DNA of 64,000 nucleotides from Nitrososphaeria archaeon (GCA_029775855.1 JARVJZ010000006.1:96001-160000), one strand, 5' to 3'; counted from the first letter of the stretch, positions 32,277-62,261 are shown. Numbers and translations: made by a program. Notes: generated by a model not told the origin, from the letters alone.

Positions 32277-33733
32277 CCATCTATAGTGGGATAGGTTTGT
32301 CTTTCCTATTTAGGAGAAAGACAGTAAGCACAGCTCTGAAGGTTTATCCGCCTAACTTTCAGGTGGAGTCTGGTAGGAGTGTGACATTAAAGGCTCATCT
32401 GAATCCTGAGAAGGCGCCTGTGGAGCGTGTTGAGTGGCGTTTAGAGGGTTTAGGTATACTTTCTGAATCAAAGGGTCCTTCCACTGTGTATACTGCGCCT
32501 AATGTAGAGCAGGAGACTAAAGTTAGGGTTGTAGCGTCTTTCCCTAAGATGAGTGAATACTTAGAGAGCTCATCTTATGCTGAGGGTGTGATCTTACCTT
32601 CTGGCTTGGCTGCTAAGTCTTCTACATTTCTTACAATATCTCCTATAAGTTTTTCGATAAATGCAGGTGAAAACATTGATTTAACAGCTGTTTTGACAGA
32701 CATGCAAGGAAATCTCTTAGGCAGTAAAGAGATCGTGTGGTTCATACAACCTCAACTAGGCAAATTAACACCAACATCAAACAACACAGCAGTATACACC
32801 GCACCTAAAGTAGATGTTGAAAACCAAATCTTAATCAAAGCAGTCTTTCAAGGCGATGAGCAGCACCTACCTTGTGAAGGTGTCTCAATAGGCTTAGTGA
32901 CGCCACCTACACTTAACGACGAATACATACTCAGCTTTAGTAGGGCAGAGGTATCAAACCTTAAGATCGATGGTGGAGCTGAGGTTGATGGTGTAAGGGT
33001 TGTTAGGATCAGTGTTGACTTGCTTGAAATATCTGATATGAGGATAAGTAGAGTGAATCTATCCTCGCAAAGCGGAGTTCTACAGAAGGTTGAGATATAC
33101 GCAACACGCCTCACAGCGCGCATACCAGATTCAGACAAGGGGTTAGATGTTAAAGGCGAAGATGATATACATCTTAACGCTTCTGAAGCCAGCTTAGATA
33201 ACGGTGTAATCTACTTTGTGAAGATGAGTTGTCTAAGTGGGGAATTAACTCAACCTGAAGTTTTAGGGCGGTATGCTGGTGGAGATGAGCCATACCTACC
33301 TATATTACTTACGACATCAAACATAACTATGGATAGGGGCTTTTCAGTTACAGGACCAGAGACATATGGCATGTTGGAGAATAAAGCTACTAAGATACTC
33401 TGCGGGAGAATCTCTGCATCAAACTTCTTCTTAAAATGCCCTAGCAGATACAGCTTAGATAGAGAGGGAAATAATCACGAGTTTGTTGAAAAGTGGGCTC
33501 TAAACGCTTCATCAGCAGCAATAGAGGATGCTGAGATATATGCAATATACTTCAAGGTAAGAGCCCTATTGGTATGGAGAGTTAAGGCTACTGGAGAAGA
33601 GTATATCCCAAGCATAATACCAGAAGGCCTCCACAGAGGAGAAAAAGCGCCGATAAACGAGGCGGATGTGGACATAATCTACCTCAAAGCCACTAAACTA
33701 AAGGTCAATAACGCATCATTCACTTTAAAGTAG
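32273..33733 (+). CDS. Hypothetical protein with two Ig-like repeats and a repeated beta-rich C-terminal region
   Basis: Repeats ..W...LG.L....T.VYTAP.V (x2); VEIYAT / AEIYAI repeat. Confidence 0.7.
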   Translation: MTIYSGIGLSFLFRRKTVSTALKVYPPNFQVESGRSVTLKAHLNPEKAPVERVEWRLEGLGILSESKGPSTVYTAPNVEQETKVRVVASFPKMSEYLESSSYAEGVILPSGLAAKSSTFLTISPISFSINAGENIDLTAVLTDMQGNLLGSKEIVWFIQPQLGKLTPTSNNTAVYTAPKVDVENQILIKAVFQGDEQHLPCEGVSIGLVTPPTLNDEYILSFSRAEVSNLKIDGGAEVDGVRVVRISVDLLEISDMRISRVNLSSQSGVLQKVEIYATRLTARIPDSDKGLDVKGEDDIHLNASEASLDNGVIYFVKMSCLSGELTQPEVLGRYAGGDEPYLPILLTTSNITMDRGFSVTGPETYGMLENKATKILCGRISASNFFLKCPSRYSLDREGNNHEFVEKWALNASSAAIEDAEIYAIYFKVRALLVWRVKATGEEYIPSIIPEGLHRGEKAPINEADVDIIYLKATKLKVNNASFTLK

Positions 33734-36068
33734 AGCGATTCTTCAACAACCAAAAGACCTTCTCAGGGGTTATAGGAAGACTGGTAACCCTAACCCCTAT
33801 AGCATCCTTAACACCATTACCTATAGCTGGCGCTATAGGCAGAACCCCTAGCTCGCCTACCGAGCGTGAGCCGAAAGGCCCAGGCCCTATGCCGCTCTCT
33901 AGAATTGTAGTTTCTATGTTAGGTGTCTCAGATATAGATGCTATTAGGTAATCCATAAAGGTGCCGTTGAAGATCTGCCCTTCTTCTATAACAAGTTCTT
34001 CAAAGAGAGATGTGCTGAAACCCATCCAAGCACCTCCCTTTAGCTGCCCCTCTACTAAAGCGGGGTTGACCGCTCTACCTACATCGGCTATAACTTTGAT
34101 GTTCAAGACCTTTATTGACCCACTTTCCGGGTCTACTGCTAAGTCTACTGCTGCGCAGATAGGCGTGTATTCTAGTGCTACTCTAGGCTTGGATGCTTGC
34201 CCTGTTTCTGGGTCTATCTCCGCTAAATCTTCGTAGAAGAAGCCTCTGCCTAGCAGTAGGCCTGTTTGCTCTATGTATGCTCCACCCATGGGTCCTGCTG
34301 TGAAGAGGGTTTCGAGGGGTATCTCTTCAGTTGTATTTTCTGACTCTACCTTCAACTTTCCGTTGCTGAATGATATTTTATCTTTTGGTTTAGAGAGGAT
34401 TTTGGAGGCTGCTTCGACTATCTGCCCCTTAAGATCTTTGACTGCTGCCAGCACGGCATTACCTAACTGGACGAGCTGCCTACTTCCGCTTGAGCCTGGT
34501 GATATAGGCGTTAGGAGGGTATCTGACGAGATCACCCTAACTTTGCTGAGTGGTATATTGAACTCTTTAGCAACGATCTGAGCAAGCCCAGTAAATGTCC
34601 CTTGACCTATGTCTGTAGCGCCGATGTAGAGGTCGATGGTTAGATCTTCGTTTAGGCGTATAAGTGCTACGCTTGGATAGGTTATGTCACATTGATGCTT
34701 CGCTATGGCTACACCCCGACCTACAACCCAACCGTCTATGGGGCTCTTTGGTTTTGGGTTTTCATCTAAGAGCTTCTTTAATGTGTTTATGCAAAGCCTC
34801 ATTGTATCGCTGTGTATCTTCTCTCCTATACAGCTCACATCGCTATCCTTTAAGATGTTTTTCAGCCTAAGTTCTAAGGGGTCTATGTTAAGCCTCTGAG
34901 CGATTTCGTTCATCTGAGACTCTATAGCCCAATATATTTGTGTTGAACCGAAGCCTCTGAACGCGCCTCCTTGAACCTGATTTGTGTAGACTCGATAGAT
35001 GTCTGCCTTAAAGTTAGGTATATTGTAGACTGAGCTTATGGCGTAGATTGCGTTTCTTACAACTACATTCCCAGCTACAGAGTATGCTCCGCCGTTATAT
35101 ACTATGCTCATTACTCTACCAATTATCCGCCCATCTTTAGTTACAGCATCACTTAACTTAATCTCTGCCTGGTGGCGTGTAGTTGTATACATTAGGTCTT
35201 CAAGCCTCGACAAAACGAGCTTAACAGGCCTACCCTGAGTCTTTAGGGCTAGGGCTGCTACTATCGGCTCATACACAGCTGCACCTCGATTACCAAAACC
35301 TCCACCAACATGCTTTGGCACTATGACTCTAATCTTCTGCTCCGGAATCTCTAAAGCGTCTGAAATCTCTTTTCTGGTTCTAAATGGTGTTTGCCCTGAG
35401 GTGTAGATTGTAAGGGAACCATCTGGCTCCTGTTTCGCTATAATAGATGTGGGTTCAAGTTGTGCGTGCTGCACCGCTTGCGTTGTATAAGTGTTAGTGA
35501 TGATAAAATCTGCTTGTTTGAATGCTTCTTCTACATCGCCAAACCTTATCTTTTGCAAAGCCGATACATTCGGTTTATTAGGTGTTAAAGCAACCCTATA
35601 CAGCTTTGACTTCAGCCGCTTGTAGCGCGATAGATCCTCATGCACAACTGTAGGAGGCTCTTCAAGTAAGGCCTCTTTGAAGTCAAAGAGAGGTGTAAGA
35701 GGTTCATACTCAACATCGACCAACTCACAAGCTGCAAAAGCTATGTCAAAAGACTCAGCAGCTACAGCTACTACAGGCTCTCCAATATACCTAACCTTAC
35801 CCCTTGCAAGTATAGGTGTGTCTAGTAGCCCTCTACCGTGCAGCCCCTTCGGCACATCTTCTGCAGTGATTACAGCAACTACGCCGCTAAGTGATGTGGC
35901 TCTACTTGTGTCCACCTTTTTTATGAGGGCGTGTGGTAATGGGCTCCTCTTTAAGCACGCATAGAGCATATAAGGTAGGGTGATGTCAGTTGTATACACT
36001 GCTTTACCAGTAACCTTCTCTAATCCATATAGATTGGGTGCGCGACTTAAATTGTTCATCTTAAACAT
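33720..36068 (-). CDS. Xanthine dehydrogenase-family molybdopterin large subunit (stand-alone)
   Basis: EKVTGKAVY..D, VGGGFG, AFRGFG, DIGQG, EGQLKGG, SVGE. Confidence 0.92.
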   Translation of the reverse strand: MFKMNNLSRAPNLYGLEKVTGKAVYTTDITLPYMLYACLKRSPLPHALIKKVDTSRATSLSGVVAVITAEDVPKGLHGRGLLDTPILARGKVRYIGEPVVAVAAESFDIAFAACELVDVEYEPLTPLFDFKEALLEEPPTVVHEDLSRYKRLKSKLYRVALTPNKPNVSALQKIRFGDVEEAFKQADFIITNTYTTQAVQHAQLEPTSIIAKQEPDGSLTIYTSGQTPFRTRKEISDALEIPEQKIRVIVPKHVGGGFGNRGAAVYEPIVAALALKTQGRPVKLVLSRLEDLMYTTTRHQAEIKLSDAVTKDGRIIGRVMSIVYNGGAYSVAGNVVVRNAIYAISSVYNIPNFKADIYRVYTNQVQGGAFRGFGSTQIYWAIESQMNEIAQRLNIDPLELRLKNILKDSDVSCIGEKIHSDTMRLCINTLKKLLDENPKPKSPIDGWVVGRGVAIAKHQCDITYPSVALIRLNEDLTIDLYIGATDIGQGTFTGLAQIVAKEFNIPLSKVRVISSDTLLTPISPGSSGSRQLVQLGNAVLAAVKDLKGQIVEAASKILSKPKDKISFSNGKLKVESENTTEEIPLETLFTAGPMGGAYIEQTGLLLGRGFFYEDLAEIDPETGQASKPRVALEYTPICAAVDLAVDPESGSIKVLNIKVIADVGRAVNPALVEGQLKGGAWMGFSTSLFEELVIEEGQIFNGTFMDYLIASISETPNIETTILESGIGPGPFGSRSVGELGVLPIAPAIGNGVKDAIGVRVTSLPITPEKVFWLLKNRSTLK

Positions 36069-36229
36069 GCTTCACCTATTTTGTGGGTTAACTTTTAATT
36101 ATACTTTAATAATAGCAACTAAATTAATTACTATTATCGTGTAAACGGTAGAAAGCTAGATGTAAAAGAATTATTAGCGCGTTTTAAAAATTGCAATTAA
36201 ATCCTTATATGAGGAATCGCAATAATAGA

Positions 36230-37939
36230 ATGTTAGAGTTGGAGGTTTATAGCCACGACATATTAATTATCGGCGCCGGTCTTGCGGGTCTCAGAGCAGC
36301 AATCGCAGCTGCAGAAGTAAGCAAAAACTTGGACATCGCGGTAATCTCAAAGGTGTATCCAATGAGGTCTCACTCAGTCTGCGCCCAAGGGGGCACAGCA
36401 GCGGTAATGAGAGAGGGCGATAGCCACGATCTACACGCTTATGATACCGTCAAAGGAAGTGACTTCTTAGCAGACCAAGATGTTGTAGAATTCTTTGTAA
36501 AAAGAGCAAGTGTAGAACTTGTGAAGCTGGAGCATTGGGGTATGCCTTGGAGCAGAACAGAAGATGGAAAGATAGCTCAAAGAGCGTTTGGTGGGCATAG
36601 CTTCAATAGAACATGTTATTCAGCAGATCTTGTGGGTTTTCAAGAAATGCACACGCTGTATGGGCGCGCCTTAGCATATGACAACATAGGCTTCTATGAC
36701 GAATGGTTCGTTACATCTCTGATAGCTGAAGAGGGACAAGCAAAGGGTGTAACAGCTATAGAACTCAAAACAGGAAGAATGAGCGCGTTCAGGGCGAAGG
36801 CGATAATAATGGCAACTGGAGGAGCCTGCAGAATATACCGTTTCACAACCTATTCACACACAGCCACAGGCGACGGTATGGCTATAGCCTATAGGGCTGG
36901 TGCACCTCTTGAAGATATGGAGTTCGTTCAATTCCATCCAACAGCGCTTGTGCCAAGCGGTGTATTAATAACTGAAGCAGCCCGTGGAGAAGGCGGCTAC
37001 CTCCTAAACAGCAAAAAAGAGCGTTTTATGGAAAAGTATGCAAAGGAGAAGATGGAACTGGCGCCACGCGACATAGTATCAAGGGCTGAAATGACCGAGA
37101 TAATGGAGGGAAGAGCATACACTGGACCAGATAGACCCTACATAGCCCTTGATCTAACACACTTAGGCGAGGAAAAGATAAACGAACGCCTCCCGTTTAT
37201 ACGCGAAGTAGCGCAGAGGTTAATAGGCGTAGACCCGGTTCATGAGCATATACCAGTAGCACCCGCTGCACACTACTCTATGGGCGGTATATCTGCGAAC
37301 ATAAGGACAGCAACGCCTTTGCCTCATCTATTTGCAGCTGGCGAATGTGCTTGCCTTAGCCTACACGGCGCCAACAGGTTGGGCTCTAACTCTACAGCGG
37401 AATGTCTGGTTTTTGGTGCTGTAGCTGGTGAAGAAGCAGCAAAACTTGCGCTTTCCTCAACGCTCCCAAGTCTACCTAGCGATAAGCTTAGAGAAGAAGA
37501 GAAGCGTGTCTTTGACCAAGTTTTGGGAAATGAAGGCGGTGAGAGGATCTCAGAGATTAGAAGACAAATGATGAATATTATGGATGATAAAGTATGGATC
37601 TTTAGAGACGAGCATGGATTAGCAGAAGCGGTTAAGGCGATAAGAGCCTTAAAGGAGAAGTTTAGAAGGGCTAAAGTTGAAGACACTTCAAGAGTGTTTA
37701 ATTTAGGTTTGGTAAACGCTCTTGAACTGGACTTTATGCTTGATTTAGCCGAGGTTACAGCCTTCTCAGCGTTAAACAGAAGAGAGTCAAGAGGGGCACA
37801 TTCAAGAATAGATTACCCCAAGCGTAATGATACGGATTGGCTTAAACACACCTTAGCCTACCACACACCAGACGGACCGAAATTAGAATATATGCCAGTA
37901 ACCATAACGAAGTGGAAACCTGTCGAAAGAAAGTATTGA
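36230..37939 (+). CDS. sdhA: Succinate dehydrogenase/fumarate reductase flavoprotein (start probably ATG 36230)
   Basis: [16 protein letters not shown] (covalent FAD His), [30 protein letters not shown]. Confidence 0.95.
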
Positions 37940-37953
37940 AGGAGGTTAAGCTT

Positions 37954-39459
37954 TTGGTGGAAGAGAAGATAATCACACTTAATGTGCAGCGATATCAACC
38001 AGAGAAAGGGCAGTTCACGACATCAACATATAGGATTCCTGTGAAAAAGGGAATGACACTACTCGACGCTCTACTATATGTGCGAGACAACATAGATGGG
38101 ACATTAACCATCAGACACTCTTGCAGAATGGGCATCTGCGGAAGCTGCTCAGTAATAGCTAATGGCAAACACCTTCTAGCTTGCTATACACAAGTCCTTG
38201 ACTTAGGTTCAGACACCATAACTGTTACTCCGATGCAGAACCTCCCCATGATAAGAGATCTAGTCCCAGACCTAAAACCATTCTTTGATAAGTATAAACC
38301 GATTCAACCCTACCTCATAAAACCAGATAAAGATATGCTTATGGAAGCAGAGTTCACACAGAAGCCTGAAGAACTCAAAAAGTATTGGAATACAACACTC
38401 TGTATAAAATGCGGACTCTGCTACTCCGCTTGCCCAGTCGTCAAATCTAACCCAGATTTCCCTGGGCCTGCTGCTACCACAACACTATACCGCTTCACAA
38501 TAGATAGTAGGGACAGCGGTGGAGAAGCTAGGCTTCAGCATACAGGTCCTTGGCTATGCTACTATTGTGGGGACTGCTCTATAAGCTGCCCTAAAGGAGT
38601 TGAACCCGCTGAGTCAATTATGTCTATGCGGCGGCATCTAATAACCAACTACGATTGGACGGGGATCTCACGCATGCTCTACAATTCAAAGAAAGCATCG
38701 ATAATATTCACATTAGGTTTAGCACTACTAACACTGCTCTTAGTCTGGTTCCTACACGGACCTATAATTACAGATAGAATTGAACTCACAACATTCGCAC
38801 CAATCGAAATTGTGCACAACGGCGGAATAATATACGGTTTGCTACTTGCTGCTCTACTACTTAGCAACCTCGGTAGAATGTATTGGTTCACTGTGAAGAA
38901 GAGAACTAACGGAAAGCATATACCATTAAGCACCTACTTCAAAGCGTTAAAACATGTGGTCTCAGAGTTTCTAGCACAAGCAGGCTACTCCAGATGCACA
39001 CCAAAACGCGCTTGGATCAACCACTTAATACTCATGTGGGGTTACACAAGCCTATTCATACTATTTGCAATTCTGCTGCCTTACACACTAGTTAATACTA
39101 TACTTCCCTTGAGCAACCCACTGCGTTTAGCAGGCTACTTTGGCTTCACAGCTTTAACATATGCTACCCTCTACGCCATCATAGGAAGAGTTAGAAAGAA
39201 GGAGGAGTTTAGGAAATACTCACACCACACAGATTGGATGTTCCTAATACTACTCTTACTCACATCCATAACAGGTATATTAATTCACATATTCATAGCG
39301 CTCAACTGGCCTCTTCCAACCTACATAATCTTCGCCATACACCTTGCTGTAGTCGTGCCGCTACTTGCTGAAGTGCCCTTCGGCAAATGGACTCACCTCG
39401 CCTACAGACCTTTCGCACTCTACTTTAATAGACTCAAAAGAGAAGCGGGCATCCAATAA
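37954..39459 (+). CDS. sdhB: SdhB/FrdB Fe-S subunit fused to a QmoC/NarI-like membrane domain
   Basis: SCRMGICGSC..LAC, CIKCGLCYSACP, CYYCGDCSISCP, then about 7 hydrophobic helices ending PFGKWTHLAYRP; SD GGAGG before TTG 37954. Confidence 0.85.
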   Translation: MVEEKIITLNVQRYQPEKGQFTTSTYRIPVKKGMTLLDALLYVRDNIDGTLTIRHSCRMGICGSCSVIANGKHLLACYTQVLDLGSDTITVTPMQNLPMIRDLVPDLKPFFDKYKPIQPYLIKPDKDMLMEAEFTQKPEELKKYWNTTLCIKCGLCYSACPVVKSNPDFPGPAATTTLYRFTIDSRDSGGEARLQHTGPWLCYYCGDCSISCPKGVEPAESIMSMRRHLITNYDWTGISRMLYNSKKASIIFTLGLALLTLLLVWFLHGPIITDRIELTTFAPIEIVHNGGIIYGLLLAALLLSNLGRMYWFTVKKRTNGKHIPLSTYFKALKHVVSEFLAQAGYSRCTPKRAWINHLILMWGYTSLFILFAILLPYTLVNTILPLSNPLRLAGYFGFTALTYATLYAIIGRVRKKEEFRKYSHHTDWMFLILLLLTSITGILIHIFIALNWPLPTYIIFAIHLAVVVPLLAEVPFGKWTHLAYRPFALYFNRLKREAGIQ

Positions 39460-39541
39460 CACCCTAAAGTCATTGAAGCGTAAAACTATGATGCTCAAAG
39501 TATTTTAATTCTTCTACCGATAATAAAGAGGTGAGAGAAGA

Positions 39542-40291
39542 TTGATTAAACGCATCCACATATTAGATTGCGGCACACTTGAAATAGACATGTCATACTT
39601 TACTTGGAAGGTGAACATAGGCAAACCATACCGCTTTCCAGTTTGGTGCACCTACGTGGAGAGCGACGAAGCTAAGATTATGATAGATACTGGCTACAAC
39701 CTTGAAAACGCCTTACAATACTACAGCTGGGAGAAGCCTCAGCAGAGTGAAGAGCAGAGGCTTGACAAACAACTAGCTCTAATCGGTGTGAAGCCAGAAG
39801 ATATAGATATCGTGGTTATAACACACCTCCACTTCGACCACGCAGGCTACCTCTACCTATTCAAGAACGCTAGAATAATCGTGCAAAAAGAGGAGCTAAG
39901 ACATGCCTATGTGCCTGAGCCGTTTGAAGCGATAGGCTACAGCAGACCAACCTTTGACATACCAGGGTTAAAATGGGAGTGTGTTAGCGGAGACCAAAAG
40001 ATAGTCGATGGGCTTAGAACCGTCTTAGCCCCTGGGCACAGCGCTGGGCATCAGATACCCATTATAGATAGTAAAGAGCTTAACACAATAATAATTGAAA
40101 GCGACGTTATAAGCACACGCGCCAACCTAGAGAAGCACATAGTAGGTGGAATACATCTAGACCCGATGGCTCAATACGAATCTATGCTTAAACTTGAGAG
40201 AATCGCCAAAGAGACTGGGGGGAAGATATTTCTAGCGCATGACACTGAATTCTATAACACGCTTAAACGTGGTAAAGAGTATTATACTTAA
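39542..40291 (+). CDS. Metallo-beta-lactamase-fold lactonase, 4-pyridoxolactonase-like
   Basis: THLHFDH, PGHSAGH; RFPV, IDTGY, EKPQQ, PEPFEAIGYS and HLDP..SM resemble Mesorhizobium 4-pyridoxolactonase as recalled. Confidence 0.75.
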   Translation: MIKRIHILDCGTLEIDMSYFTWKVNIGKPYRFPVWCTYVESDEAKIMIDTGYNLENALQYYSWEKPQQSEEQRLDKQLALIGVKPEDIDIVVITHLHFDHAGYLYLFKNARIIVQKEELRHAYVPEPFEAIGYSRPTFDIPGLKWECVSGDQKIVDGLRTVLAPGHSAGHQIPIIDSKELNTIIIESDVISTRANLEKHIVGGIHLDPMAQYESMLKLERIAKETGGKIFLAHDTEFYNTLKRGKEYYT

Positions 40292-40338: not shown

Positions 40339-40587
40339 ATGTTGGGGTTGGGAATATTTACAGAGGGAGAAAACGAGGTTATTGTAGATGCTTATGACGT
40401 CTTTGGTGTGATAGAGGCTCTAAAGAACAAATATCCACTCTTTAAAGAGAAGTTATGTGACCCAAGAACTGGTAGACTATATCCTGGGTTCGACATATTC
40501 GTGAATGAGCATCCTACATTGGATGAGAAGCATGTGTTAAAGGACGGGGACGTTGTAACTATAGTTCCGATCTTTGCTGGTGGATAA
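40339..40587 (+). CDS. MoaD/SAMP ubiquitin-like sulfur carrier
   Basis: IFVNE...LKDGDVVTIVPIFAGG C-terminal diglycine; next to AOR. Confidence 0.88.
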   Translation: MLGLGIFTEGENEVIVDAYDVFGVIEALKNKYPLFKEKLCDPRTGRLYPGFDIFVNEHPTLDEKHVLKDGDVVTIVPIFAGG

Positions 40588-40649: not shown

Positions 40650-42524
40650 TTGAGCGATTTTAAATACAAAGGCTACTGCTCTAAACTGCTGAGAGTAAAT
40701 CTAACTTCACAAACCGCTTCTGAAGAACCTTTGAATGAATCTGATGTAGAAAGATTTATCGGTGGTAGAGGACTTGGCGCGAAGATACTTTTTGACGAAG
40801 TCAAAGAAGGCGTTGAACCCCTAAGCCCAGAAAACAAGCTCATAATAACCACTGGACCATTAACGGGAACGAGGGTACCTACTAGTACAAACCGCTTTGT
40901 AATTACAACAAAATCTCCTCTAACAGGTATCTACGGCTTTTCAGTTTCAGGAGGAGCATTTGGCTTAGAGTTAAAGAAGGCTGGATACGATGGATTAGTG
41001 ATAGAAGGCAAAGCGAATAAACCAACATACTTACAGATAGAAGATGGAGAACTACATTTTAGAGACGCAGGCTGGCTCTGGGGCATACCAGTATTCGAAG
41101 CAACCAGGCTTCTGAGAGAAACCTTAGGTTATGACTACAGAACAATAATGATAGGCCCTTCTGGGGAGAAGTTGGTTAAGATCGCAGGCATAATTTCAGA
41201 CGACCGAAGAGCATCAGCAAGGTGTGGTGTTGGAGCGGTAATGGGCTCAAAGCTACTAAAGGCAGTGGCGGTCAAAGGCTCAAAAGAATACACATTTGCA
41301 GACCCCGCTAAATTCGACGAAGCGTTAAAAGAAGCATTCAAGAACATTGGGATACAACCCGGCCCATGGAAGGAGTTCAGACAGACAGGCACCCAATCTG
41401 GGCCGATAAAGAACAACGCTTGGGGTATCTTACCTACAGCTAACTGGCGTGAATCTGTATTCGATAAAGCTGCTGAAATAAGCTACCCTCTGTTAAGAGA
41501 GAGGTTTGTCGTCAAAGATACTGGCTGTAACCAGTGCCCGATAAGATGCACAAAACTAACCTTGGTTAAGGATGGGCCTTATGCTGGTGCTGCAACTGAT
41601 GGGCCTGAGTATGAGACGATTTACGCGTTTGGCAGCGCTTGCAAGATAGGTGACCCGAGACCTATTATAGCGGCTGATATGCTCTGTGACGATCTAGGGC
41701 TTGATACCATGTCTACTGGGCTTACTATAGCTTGGGCTATGGAGGCTCTTGAGAAGAATGCTATCTCAAAGAGCGAGTTGGATGGGTTAAATTTGAGATT
41801 TGGGAGCGACGAAGGACTGCTGAACGCTATCAAGAAGATGGCTTATAGGGATGGAGCATTAGGCAAACTACTTTCAGATGGCGTAAGAGAGGCTGCTAGA
41901 AAGGTTGGGAAAGGCTCCGAAAGCTATGCTATGCACGTTAAGGGTCTTGAGATAGGAGGTTATGACCCAAGAGGCTCAAAGGGGCAGGGATTAGTGTTGG
42001 CTGCTGGTTCAAGAGGCGGATGCCATCACGCATATGGTGTGGCTTCCTTTGTTGAAATACCTCAAGGTACTGCTACAAGCGCTAAAGGAAAGGGGTTGCT
42101 CGTTAAGGGAACATTAAGGGTTAGGGTTATGATAGATTCATCCCCTTTATGCGCCTTCGCAGCATCCAGGGTGCCACCGCCGCTGCTGGCTAGATTAATT
42201 TCAGCTGCCACTGGAATGGAGATGCAGCTCTCTGATTTGGAGAGAGCTGCTGATAGAATAGCGACACTCGAAAGAGCATATAACGCTAGAGAAGGGGTAA
42301 GAAGGGAGCATGACACTCTGCCGGATAGGTTGCTAAAGGAAGCTGTGCCAGATGGGCCGAACAAAGGTGCGGTTCTTACACCTGAAGAACTTGAACTTAT
42401 GAAGACAGAGCTCTATGAAGCCATGGGTTGGGATACTTCTACTGGCATACCTAAGAGGAGCACGCTGGAGGCTTTAGGGTTGGCTGATGTAGCTTCAGAT
42501 CTAGCTAGGGCTGGATGTCTGTAG
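40650..42524 (+). CDS. aor: Tungsten aldehyde:ferredoxin oxidoreductase family (AOR/WOR)
   Basis: IGGRGLG, KSPLTG, GAVMGSKLLKA, CNQCPIRC, GPEYET, DDLGLDT, RGGCH. Confidence 0.93.
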   Translation: MSDFKYKGYCSKLLRVNLTSQTASEEPLNESDVERFIGGRGLGAKILFDEVKEGVEPLSPENKLIITTGPLTGTRVPTSTNRFVITTKSPLTGIYGFSVSGGAFGLELKKAGYDGLVIEGKANKPTYLQIEDGELHFRDAGWLWGIPVFEATRLLRETLGYDYRTIMIGPSGEKLVKIAGIISDDRRASARCGVGAVMGSKLLKAVAVKGSKEYTFADPAKFDEALKEAFKNIGIQPGPWKEFRQTGTQSGPIKNNAWGILPTANWRESVFDKAAEISYPLLRERFVVKDTGCNQCPIRCTKLTLVKDGPYAGAATDGPEYETIYAFGSACKIGDPRPIIAADMLCDDLGLDTMSTGLTIAWAMEALEKNAISKSELDGLNLRFGSDEGLLNAIKKMAYRDGALGKLLSDGVREAARKVGKGSESYAMHVKGLEIGGYDPRGSKGQGLVLAAGSRGGCHHAYGVASFVEIPQGTATSAKGKGLLVKGTLRVRVMIDSSPLCAFAASRVPPPLLARLISAATGMEMQLSDLERAADRIATLERAYNAREGVRREHDTLPDRLLKEAVPDGPNKGAVLTPEELELMKTELYEAMGWDTSTGIPKRSTLEALGLADVASDLARAGCL

Positions 42525-61381: not shown

Positions 61382-62261
61382 GATAAGCAAACTCGTGGTA
61401 AAGTCGACAGTTAAAGAACTTTTGAGGATAGCTTCTGTGGAGCTGCCCAATGATGTGAAGATGGCTTTAAGAGCTGCTTACGAGCGTGAGGTTGATGCTG
61501 TGCCTAAGATGCAGCTTAAAGCTATACTCGACAACATCGATCTTGCTGAAAAGACGGGTATTCCTATGTGTCAGGATACTGGCATTCATGTGGTGTATGT
61601 TAAGTGGGGTGATGTTGATGTTGAGGATTTGGAGGAAGCAGTAAGGGAGGGGGTTGCGGAGGCTACATCTTCTATACCTCTTCGCCCCAACGCTGTGCAT
61701 CCCCTAACTCGAAAGAACCCTGGCACGAATGTCGGTTTGCATATGCCCTATATACACATCGATAAAACAAAGGAGAAGTTCTTGGAGATCACGGTTATGC
61801 CTAAGGGGTTTGGTGCTGAAAATATGAGTGCTTTAGCGATGCTAACCCCAGCACATGGACTCAAAGGTGTTAAGGAGTTTATTCTGCAGACGGTTGTGAA
61901 GGCTGGCGGCAACCCTTGCCCACCTGGCATACTTGGTATTGGGATTGGTGGGACGGCTGATGTCGCTATGAAGCTCGCTAAGGAGGCTCTGCTTCGTCCA
62001 CTTGGCTCTAGAAATCCTGATCCAGAGGTGGCTAAGTTGGAGGAGGAACTTCTTGAAGCGTTGAACGGCTTAGGCATAGGTCCTATGGGTTTAGGTGGTA
62101 AGACCACTTTGCTTGGTGTTAACATCGAGGTAGCCTACACTCATACGGCTGGGTTGCCTGTTGCTGTGAACTATCAGTGTTGGGCTGCTAGGCGTGCTTC
62201 TGCTAGAATATACCCTGATGGTAGGGTGGAGTATACTTCACATAGGAAGAAGGAGGTGTGA
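61380..62261 (+). CDS. fumA: Class I Fe-S fumarate hydratase/tartrate dehydratase, alpha subunit
   Basis: PMCQDTG, PKG.G.EN, GNPCPP, GIGPMGLGG, CWAARR. Confidence 0.9.
   Translation: MISKLVVKSTVKELLRIASVELPNDVKMALRAAYEREVDAVPKMQLKAILDNIDLAEKTGIPMCQDTGIHVVYVKWGDVDVEDLEEAVREGVAEATSSIPLRPNAVHPLTRKNPGTNVGLHMPYIHIDKTKEKFLEITVMPKGFGAENMSALAMLTPAHGLKGVKEFILQTVVKAGGNPCPPGILGIGIGGTADVAMKLAKEALLRPLGSRNPDPEVAKLEEELLEALNGLGIGPMGLGGKTTLLGVNIEVAYTHTAGLPVAVNYQCWAARRASARIYPDGRVEYTSHRKKEV

Follow-up and report, generated by a model that had tools for sequence, protein, structure and literature searches.

A gene joining SdhB to a QmoC-type membrane domain, and the two-polypeptide complex II that it probably encodes, in a Nitrososphaeria archaeon

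We analysed a 64,000-nucleotide stretch of DNA (the window) from a hot-spring Nitrososphaeria archaeon (GCA_029775855.1, JARVJZ010000006.1:96001-160000), in which two same-strand open reading frames (ORFs) occupy positions 36191-39459 and encode the complex II flavoprotein SdhA and a protein that joins the iron–sulfur (FeS) subunit SdhB to a membrane domain of the QmoC type. The first gene, sdhA/frdA (36191..37939, + strand), encodes 582 amino acids (aa) from a TTG codon at 36191, with an alternative ATG start at 36230, which is codon 14. The second, the fused sdhB::qmoC gene (37954..39459, + strand), encodes 501 aa. Extended to GTG 37912, it forms the longest ORF, of 515 aa, to which residue numbers of the fusion protein refer throughout. 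The true start is probably TTG 37954, 14 nucleotides (nt) past the sdhA stop codon, since the intergenic spacer (37940..37956 together with this start codon, + strand, as read from the sequence) contains GGAGG 7 nt upstream of the TTG and the database cluster representative P0002 has the same 501-aa form. These two frames correspond to what an earlier, sequence-only reading of this DNA described, namely sdhA followed by a single ORF of about 500 aa. The SdhA protein scores 888.4 bits on NF004724 (cut-off 826), also matches FAD_binding_2 and Succ_DH_flav_C, and carries the catalytic and covalent flavin adenine dinucleotide (FAD) motifs: HSVCAQGG, with the flavin His (His61), FHPT, RDIVSR, HYSMGG and GANRL. 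It is 83.6-88.7% identical to its counterparts in the other three species of the genus (83.7% in genome G203).

In sequence, the fused protein is SdhB as far as about residue 205, and the part from about residue 211 onwards is QmoC. The SdhB [2Fe-2S] domain (residues 22-125; 37975..38286, + strand) carries the motif C71-x4-C76-x2-C79...C91. The SdhB-derived part of the dicluster domain (residues 126-205; 38287..38526, + strand) contains the first dicluster motif, C164IKCGLCYSAC174P (Cys 164/167/170/174; C164xxCxxCxxxC174P), and a GPAA...RF.IDSRD stretch that can be aligned to E. coli FrdB (1kf6_B), which is the best solved match of the SdhB half (3.3e-47, residues 18-238). After a crossover zone in which the parent of higher identity switches (residues 206-211; 38527..38544, + strand), the QmoC-derived segment (residues 212-259; 38545..38688, + strand) comprises the second dicluster motif, PWLC216YYCGDCSISC226P, with four Cys (216/219/222/226), and the linker MRRHLITNYDWTG. 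In this segment MRR lies at residues 239-241 and YDWTG at residues 247-251, and among 119 family members R240, R241, Y247, D248, W249, T250 and G251 are each conserved in 88-100%. The remainder (residues 260-515; 38689..39456, + strand) is a predicted six-helix NarI/HdrE-like cytochrome b domain, with the qmoC profile matched to its end.

The scan with hidden Markov model profiles that the sequence-only reading had proposed is in agreement with this division. Pfam returned Fer2_3 (residues 22-125, 3.2e-29) and Fer4_8 (residues 163-230, 1.3e-10), and gave no match on residues 250-515 at E <= 0.1. Two SdhB models, PRK05950 (244.6 bits, cut-off 228) and TIGR00384 (229.7 bits, cut-off 88), matched above their cut-offs over about residues 16-245, and the qmoC model NF038018 matched residues 164-505 with positions 20-360 of its 360 (E 1.8e-38, 133 bits). 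The earlier reading had recognised an SdhB N-terminus and a C-terminal half of the QmoC type, not of SdhC/D; all the Cys motifs that it quoted are present, and the qmoC profile match and the relatives point to the same C-terminal assignment. It had further noted four Cys in the last cluster motif in place of the usual [3Fe-4S] pattern; the four Cys are there, but they are no novelty, since SdhB of type E enzymes has the same. In databases, such genes are annotated as 'ferredoxin' or left unnamed.

The breakpoint was located by aligning the fusion with the closest single-module relatives from related genomes, the SdhB of G203, from the same genus, and a QmoC-like protein of G014, from the same class. 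Residues 19-125 are 83.2% identical to G203 SdhB, a region in which G014 QmoC is not comparable. The first motif (residues 161-178) is 77.8% identical to SdhB and 33.3% to QmoC, and the GPAA...RF.IDSRD stretch (residues 179-205) is 51.9% and 10.5% identical, respectively. The second motif with MRR (residues 215-245) shows the reverse, 32.1% to SdhB and 64.5% to QmoC, and residues 246-515 have no homology to G203 SdhB and are 54-65% identical to G014 QmoC. By this alignment, the crossover lies between DSRD (~205) and TGPW (~211), a span of about six codons at nt 38527-38544, inside a dicluster ferredoxin domain common to both parents, and the four-Cys second motif of the fusion descends from the QmoC parent. 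A sequence profile of the QmoC family matches both HdrC (2e-19) and FrdB (1.5e-10). These were the top matches when the PDB was searched by sequence, using either the protein or a profile of 23 sequences, and among the best 60 of 102 matches only FeS domains were hit. A junction at a shared ferredoxin motif had been placed near 38520 from the sequence alone, which is within 25 nt of this zone. The fusion holds exactly one copy of each cluster motif. In the usual ferredoxin ligation pattern, each [4Fe-4S] cluster would draw Cys from both halves of the domain.

The same junction is found in other samples. Among hot-spring metagenomes, runs X3 and X4 each have one contig that spans the whole of 37600-39500, with 6-7 differences, and a contig of run X5 covers 38373-39080; all three bridge the crossover zone without indels or joints, and none of these runs is among those flagged as a possible source. 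The junction, for which the sequence-only reading had raised the possibility of a misassembly, is thus not one. Two further species of the genus also have the gene, complete and uninterrupted with 89% identity in G202, and in G201 divided between the ends of two contigs, which share residues 255-300. In both genomes the order is sdhA, the fusion, an MBL-fold gene, an 82-aa ORF and a gene for aldehyde:ferredoxin oxidoreductase (AOR), and public data contain five further 90%-identity protein clusters (P0003-P0007) with 73-84% identity. The fused gene is under purifying selection. Between the orthologues of G000, the genome of the window, and G202, the ratio of nonsynonymous to synonymous substitution rates (dN/dS) is 0.078 over the whole fusion and about 0.06 for sdhA; by segment it is 0.054 in the [2Fe-2S] domain, 0.094 in the SdhB-derived dicluster part, 0.008 in the QmoC-derived motif and linker, and 0.099 in the membrane domain.

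The genus comprises four species genomes (G000, G201, G202 and G203), of which G203 has a different arrangement. Its sdhA is followed by a 320-aa sdhB with a four-Cys second motif and then by a 291-aa protein with two CCG domains, and by gene content this is a type-E operon (sdhA, sdhB and a CCG-domain sdhE). Outside the genus, too, the closest SdhB relatives have CCG domains either attached or coming next, and type E is therefore the probable ancestral state, from which the fusion would have derived. On the QmoC side, all three stand-alone QmoC-like genes examined in the class (G014, G019 and G081) adjoin two HdrA-like genes and an MvhD-like gene, and a stand-alone QmoC was not found in G000. 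G014 also has sdhA, two Sdh_cyt ORFs and sdhB besides its separate qmoABC-like cluster, and on this gene content the class holds three different complex II anchor solutions. We propose that the fusion arose in the genus by in-frame recombination of a type-E-like sdhB with qmoC within their homologous ferredoxin domain; the acquired sequence would have taken the place of both the sdhB 3' end and the CCG-domain sdhE. The donor and the direction of the swap rest on the identities given above and on the distribution of anchors among the relatives.

Two observations on these class relatives may be added. In 13 of the 16 loci holding both genes (L008-L023), the end of sdhA and sdhB are 822-1362 nt apart; an sdhA-C-D-B order may be common in the class, because the corresponding gap in G014 (L025), the only one checked by Pfam, holds two Sdh_cyt ORFs. 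At L026 (G019:C21) and L027 (G081:C33), the genes run in the order QmoC-like, two HdrA-like, MvhD and then the small and large subunits of a [NiFe] hydrogenase, an arrangement that may represent a membrane-linked Mvh-Qmo complex.

Hydropathy and two AlphaFold models place six transmembrane helices at residues 260-281, 298-327, 365-387, 403-428, 439-463 and 467-486; of two further helices, the one at 339-355 is amphipathic and the one at 494-511 is C-terminal. The sequence-only reading had counted about seven hydrophobic helices; six of them are transmembrane, and the remainder is short or amphipathic. The Lys plus Arg counts of the loops (4 and 4 on the inner side; 1, 0 and 0 on the outer side) fit an N-in, C-in topology with the FeS domain and the C-terminus in the cytoplasm. 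Because Foldseek with the full-length model ranked SdhB chains first (with 9ojn at E 8.3e-3), the membrane domain was modelled alone, and AlphaFold2 gave a predicted local distance difference test score (pLDDT) of 95.2 and a predicted template modelling score of 0.91. Among 48,161 solved chains, the best fold match of this model is the EtfD membrane domain from M. smegmatis (9ojn_A; Z 11.0, 218 residues, root-mean-square deviation (rmsd) 4.3), and the second is E. coli NarI (1q16_C; Z 8.7, 169 residues, rmsd 5.2). Further dihaem cytochromes b rank below these two.

Four His residues of this domain, H282, H371, H477 and H495, are candidate haem ligands. H371 (WINHL, 39022-39024) is kept in 119 of 119 family members, and H477 (AIHLA, 39340-39342) and H495 (KWTHLAYRP, 39394-39396) are each kept in 118; within the fusion clade, all three are kept. 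Conservation is lower for H438 (97 of 119), H282 (FLHGP, 38755-38757; 89 of 119) and H459 (LIHIF; 57 of 119). Of the His residues that had been singled out from the sequence alone, H371, H477 and H495 are therefore near-invariant and H459 is not; H282 was not among them. H371 and H495 are positioned near the cytoplasmic face, whereas helix 1 carries H282 at its outer end and helix 6 carries H477 at mid-length. The spacing of H477 and H495, 18 residues, is also that given in the accessible part of a preprint (10.64898/2026.08.18.745454) for H233, a distal haem ligand, and H251, a proximal haem ligand, in EMO. QmoC of sulfate reducers is described, in the accessible text of PMC3333476, as holding two haems b that can be reduced by quinol, and its quinone site is thought there to face the periplasm.

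The genome was also considered for other anchors and for a respiratory chain. G000 is 98.4% complete, and Sdh_cyt (PF01127) had no match anywhere in it, with the control search positive in 8 of 14 known genomes. Its CCG-domain genes (on C1, C2 and C3) lie elsewhere, beside HdrA/HdrC-like or ferredoxin genes. The absence of sdhC/sdhD and of a CCG anchor from the neighbourhood, which the sequence-only reading had noticed, thus applies to the operon in the case of CCG genes and to the whole genome in the case of PF01127. The genome encodes a cytochrome bd quinol oxidase, a Rieske/cytochrome b pair, three UbiA-family genes, a class I fumarase, a succinyl-CoA synthetase and a molybdoenzyme with another NarI-like subunit, and this content fits a quinone-based chain. 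One locus (L032, G000:C1:298000-314000) holds an 860-aa molybdopterin oxidoreductase and a Fer4_11 protein next to Rieske and cytochrome b genes, as well as a 257-aa NarI-like membrane protein in the opposite orientation with no Pfam hit; it may be a second quinone-linked module.

In the window, the operon is flanked upstream by a xanthine-dehydrogenase-family molybdopterin subunit gene (33720-36068, - strand) and downstream by genes for an MBL-fold hydrolase (39542-40291, + strand), for an 82-aa ORF that ends in GG and is MoaD/ThiS-like by eye (40339-40587, + strand) and for the AOR (40650-42524, + strand). The order of the three downstream genes is kept in G201 and G202. The class I fumarate hydratase gene (PF05681, 349 bits) lies at 61404-62204 (+ strand), about 22 kb downstream of the sdh genes.

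Taken together, we consider it likely that the locus encodes a two-polypeptide, membrane-bound member of the complex II superfamily, a natural chimera with a proposed dihaem electron path that was born of recombination within the genus. Its most likely function, judged from the sequence, is that of a two-subunit membrane succinate/fumarate:quinone oxidoreductase, for which we infer the cofactor content, haem binding, quinone site, catalytic direction and energetic coupling as follows. SdhA would bear the dicarboxylate site and FAD, and the SdhB-derived part, that is, the [2Fe-2S] domain and the first half of the dicluster domain, would serve SdhA. Electrons would pass from succinate through FAD, [2Fe-2S], [4Fe-4S], the second [4Fe-4S], the proximal haem b and the distal haem b to quinone, or in the reverse direction, and each [4Fe-4S] would be ligated by Cys of both parents. 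The proximal haem b would be held by H371 and H495 on the cytoplasmic side and the distal haem b by H477, probably with H282, on the outer side, and the quinone site would lie near the outer membrane face. Since the electrons would cross the membrane, their flow from succinate to quinone would be driven in part by the membrane potential, at its expense, as a reverse redox loop; quinol-to-fumarate transfer would be electrogenic. Such a reverse loop would be useful only if the quinone were of low potential. The potential of the fumarate/succinate couple is about +30 mV. For menaquinol, an E0' of about -75 mV is given in the accessible text of PMC3333476. The type-E enzyme of G203 would have no transmembrane wire, so the anchor swap should change the energy coupling.

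Several results weigh against this proposal. The qmoC score of 133 bits falls short of the 300 that the equivalog model requires, and Pfam Nitrate_red_gam (PF02665) did not match the fusion at E <= 0.1; a precomputed PF02665 match exists in 4 of 120 listed homologues. Confidence in the chimeric dicluster domain is only moderate when the whole protein is modelled, with a pLDDT of 45-74 over residues 141-220 of P0002. The Z scores of 8.7-11.0 are below about 13, the safe range of the tool for helical bundles, so that a chance match is possible, and the Foldseek E values of the membrane model are weak (1.3e-2 for 9ojn and 0.64 for NarI); the fold assignment therefore leans on the qmoC sequence match. 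Porphobilinogen synthase (PF00490, hemB) was found in none of the four genus genomes and HemC was not found in G000, so haem would have to be imported, which suggests haem auxotrophy with haem uptake in G000 or in the genus. MqnA/D were not found in the genome. The sole contig from an RNA library (run X8) spans 37962-38455, short of the junction; it may represent DNA carry-over and is not proof of expression.

As to the direction of catalysis, on which the sequence itself is no guide, we regard succinate oxidation as slightly more likely than fumarate reduction. It is possible, though we think it rather doubtful, that the fused enzyme is mainly a menaquinol:fumarate reductase, which would form the anaerobic electrogenic half of a redox loop like that of NarGHI instead of serving as a succinate dehydrogenase of the tricarboxylic acid cycle. 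A haem-copper oxidase (COX1) was found in none of the four genus genomes, AOR and other anaerobe-type enzymes are among the neighbours, the SdhB half scores well on FrdB, with 1kf6_B as its best solved match, and anchors of the NarI/QmoC type normally oxidise quinol at the outer face, as stated in the accessible text of PMC3333476. However, the presence of the cytochrome bd quinol oxidase makes an oxidative chain possible, and complex II is reversible in vitro, so that the question is one of physiology and not of architecture. The SdhA motif HSVCAQGG, moreover, has Gln, not Glu, after the flavin His, which we take to be a succinate-oxidising signature in E. coli.

The lack of detectable hemB in the genus and of HemC in G000 would also agree with a membrane domain that is a haem-free tether, with quinone reduced from the third cluster or electrons passed to another partner, and M. 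smegmatis EtfD is reported in the accessible part of the preprint (10.64898/2026.08.18.745454) to be without the distal haem though its His is kept. We consider such a tether unlikely, since the three His residues are conserved both in 118-119 of 119 relatives and within the fusion clade, and the membrane domain has a dN/dS of 0.099. In addition, cytochrome bd, cytochrome b and another NarI-like protein encoded by the same genome need haem, and haem must therefore be available.

It is very improbable that the QmoC half still docks HdrA-like proteins in the manner of QmoAB, which would link succinate/fumarate to flavin-based electron bifurcation or confurcation. The genome does have two clusters in which HdrA is accompanied by HdrB/C-like genes, in one case together with an MvhD-like gene, and it has no QmoC gene standing alone; but those HdrA genes sit with HdrB and HdrC genes of their own, sdhA is translationally adjacent to the fusion, and the segment of QmoC expected to face QmoB, its first cluster motif and N-terminus, is exactly what SdhB sequence has replaced. 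Least credible of all is an assembly or gene-calling artefact that joined sdhB to an adjacent qmoC. The window does come from a metagenome-type assembly, and in G201 the gene is interrupted between two contigs; but three other samples have contigs that cross the junction without indels or joints, the gene of G202 reads through in the same frame, the sequence on both sides of the junction is in open frame and under strong purifying selection, and two adjacent genes would give two complete ferredoxin domains in place of one copy per cluster motif.

The proposed dihaem enzyme can be compared with several known systems. In type B complex II (the succinate:quinone oxidoreductase (SQR) of B. subtilis and the quinol:fumarate reductase of W. 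succinogenes), two haems b, stacked across the membrane in a single large anchor subunit, couple succinate/menaquinone chemistry to the membrane potential. The proposed dihaem logic of the fusion is alike; in contrast, the type B anchor is a separate polypeptide of the Sdh_cyt/FrdC lineage and its SdhB has [3Fe-4S], and no Sdh_cyt (PF01127) anchor of types A-D is found in the genome. The SdhB/FrdB character of the fusion lies in its score, the three Cys motifs and the adjacent sdhA. The type E SQR (SdhABEF of Sulfolobus/Acidianus, and the G203 operon) belongs to the same SdhA/SdhB lineage, with 83.7% identity in SdhA and 83.2% in the [2Fe-2S] domain to G203. Type E SdhB also has a four-Cys third cluster motif, implying [4Fe-4S], according to the accessible text of PMC2754724, and so does the unfused SdhB of G203. 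As far as the accessible parts of PMC2754724 and the preprint (10.64898/2026.08.18.745454) describe it, type E has no transmembrane helices and no haem and uses the CCG-domain SdhE as a monotopic anchor. In the fusion, SdhE and the C-terminal extension of SdhB are gone, the operon has no CCG gene, and a cytochrome b domain with six transmembrane helices is covalently attached.

QmoC of the type II Qmo complex (Ammonifex/Vulcanisaeta-like, and the stand-alone genes of the class) is 51-56% identical to the fusion from the second cluster motif to the C-terminus, and the two have the same linker signature, the same conserved His residues and a six-helix cytochrome b after a two-cluster domain. QmoC itself is described in the accessible text of PMC3333476 as an HdrC-like FeS domain fused to an HdrE-like cytochrome b. 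The fusion differs in its partner, which is SdhA and not QmoA/QmoB, its neighbours being sdhA, the MBL-fold gene and AOR, and in that SdhB contributes the first cluster motif together with all that precedes it. TcuAB and EtfD/EMO, which are made of two components or of one chain, likewise link a flavoprotein to quinone through a QmoC/NarI-like haem domain with FeS clusters, and tcuB is described in the accessible text of PMC10468695 as an FADH2:quinone oxidoreductase. The TcuB model (NF011607) matches residues 215-504 of the fusion at 38.5 bits, below its cut-off of 524. These systems are without the SdhB [2Fe-2S] domain, and EMO/EtfD have CCG domains with non-cubane clusters, of which the fusion has none. 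A precedent for SdhB and a downstream electron-transfer module in one chain is given by TfrB (thiol:fumarate reductase) and the 521-aa SdhB-CCG fusions of Bathyarchaeia, which are 52-55% identical to the SdhB half; however, their module is a soluble CCG/HdrB-like domain and not a membrane cytochrome, and the TfrB model scores 143.3 bits on the fusion (cut-off 385).

The fusion is rare. In a sample of 201 genomes of the class, 186 match at E <= 1e-10 and both halves are matched in G000 alone; the sample includes the unpublished genome G132, on which no specific claim depends. A scan of 185,579 species, with one genome per species, listed at least 80 loci, one of which is a full-length match (L038, from an uncultured Nitrososphaerales archaeon, which may overlap the genus genomes already counted), and the other 79 listed match only from residue 97-150 onward. 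HMMER against 1.84 billion 50%-identity representatives found, among the best 150 matches, P0003 alone spanning both halves and 149 spanning one half only, and Pfam found the combination of Fer2_3 with the membrane domain in none of 10 long or multi-stretch hits that were checked. Public data also contain other SdhB joinings: P0257 (499 aa) has SdhB followed by a cytochrome c domain, and P0224 (929 aa) has an SdhB-like [2Fe-2S] domain before a molybdopterin oxidoreductase.

A description of an SdhB-QmoC or SdhB-NarI fusion was not found in the literature searched, which did not cover the survey of Karavaeva and Sousa (2023). What appears new here is the joining of SdhB to a NarI/QmoC-type cytochrome b to give what is probably a membrane complex II of two polypeptides, for which we found no paper; it is not a new principle. 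The sequence-only reading had placed the architecture outside the A-F types, and the anchor features of types A-D and of type E are indeed missing, but its unclassified status is not fully secured. On balance, we lean towards regarding the locus as a recent natural anchor swap and a seventh membrane solution for complex II, in which one in-frame crossover would have converted an enzyme of type E, monotopic and free of haem, into one of two subunits with a dihaem wire across the membrane, and altered its coupling to the proton-motive force within one genus.

Complex II enzymes are classified by their membrane anchors. In the view of the field, as Karavaeva and Sousa (2023) reportedly put it, a soluble SdhAB core gained its anchors on several independent occasions. 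The present locus looks like an anchor acquisition caught near the event, since close relatives still have the two parental states: type E occurs within the genus, and the class includes QmoABC and SdhACDB. It suggests that an anchor may be changed by recombination inside the last FeS domain, instead of by recruiting a new subunit, and that a membrane complex II may consist of only two polypeptides. Annotation pipelines would score this organism as being without a complex II anchor. The enzyme would provide a testable case for the effect of a dihaem NarI-type anchor on succinate/quinone energetics, and if our reading is true, the sister species with type E and with the fusion offer a ready comparison of how the anchor affects energy coupling, and the FeS 'connector' domains of respiratory enzymes would be recombination-compatible joints.

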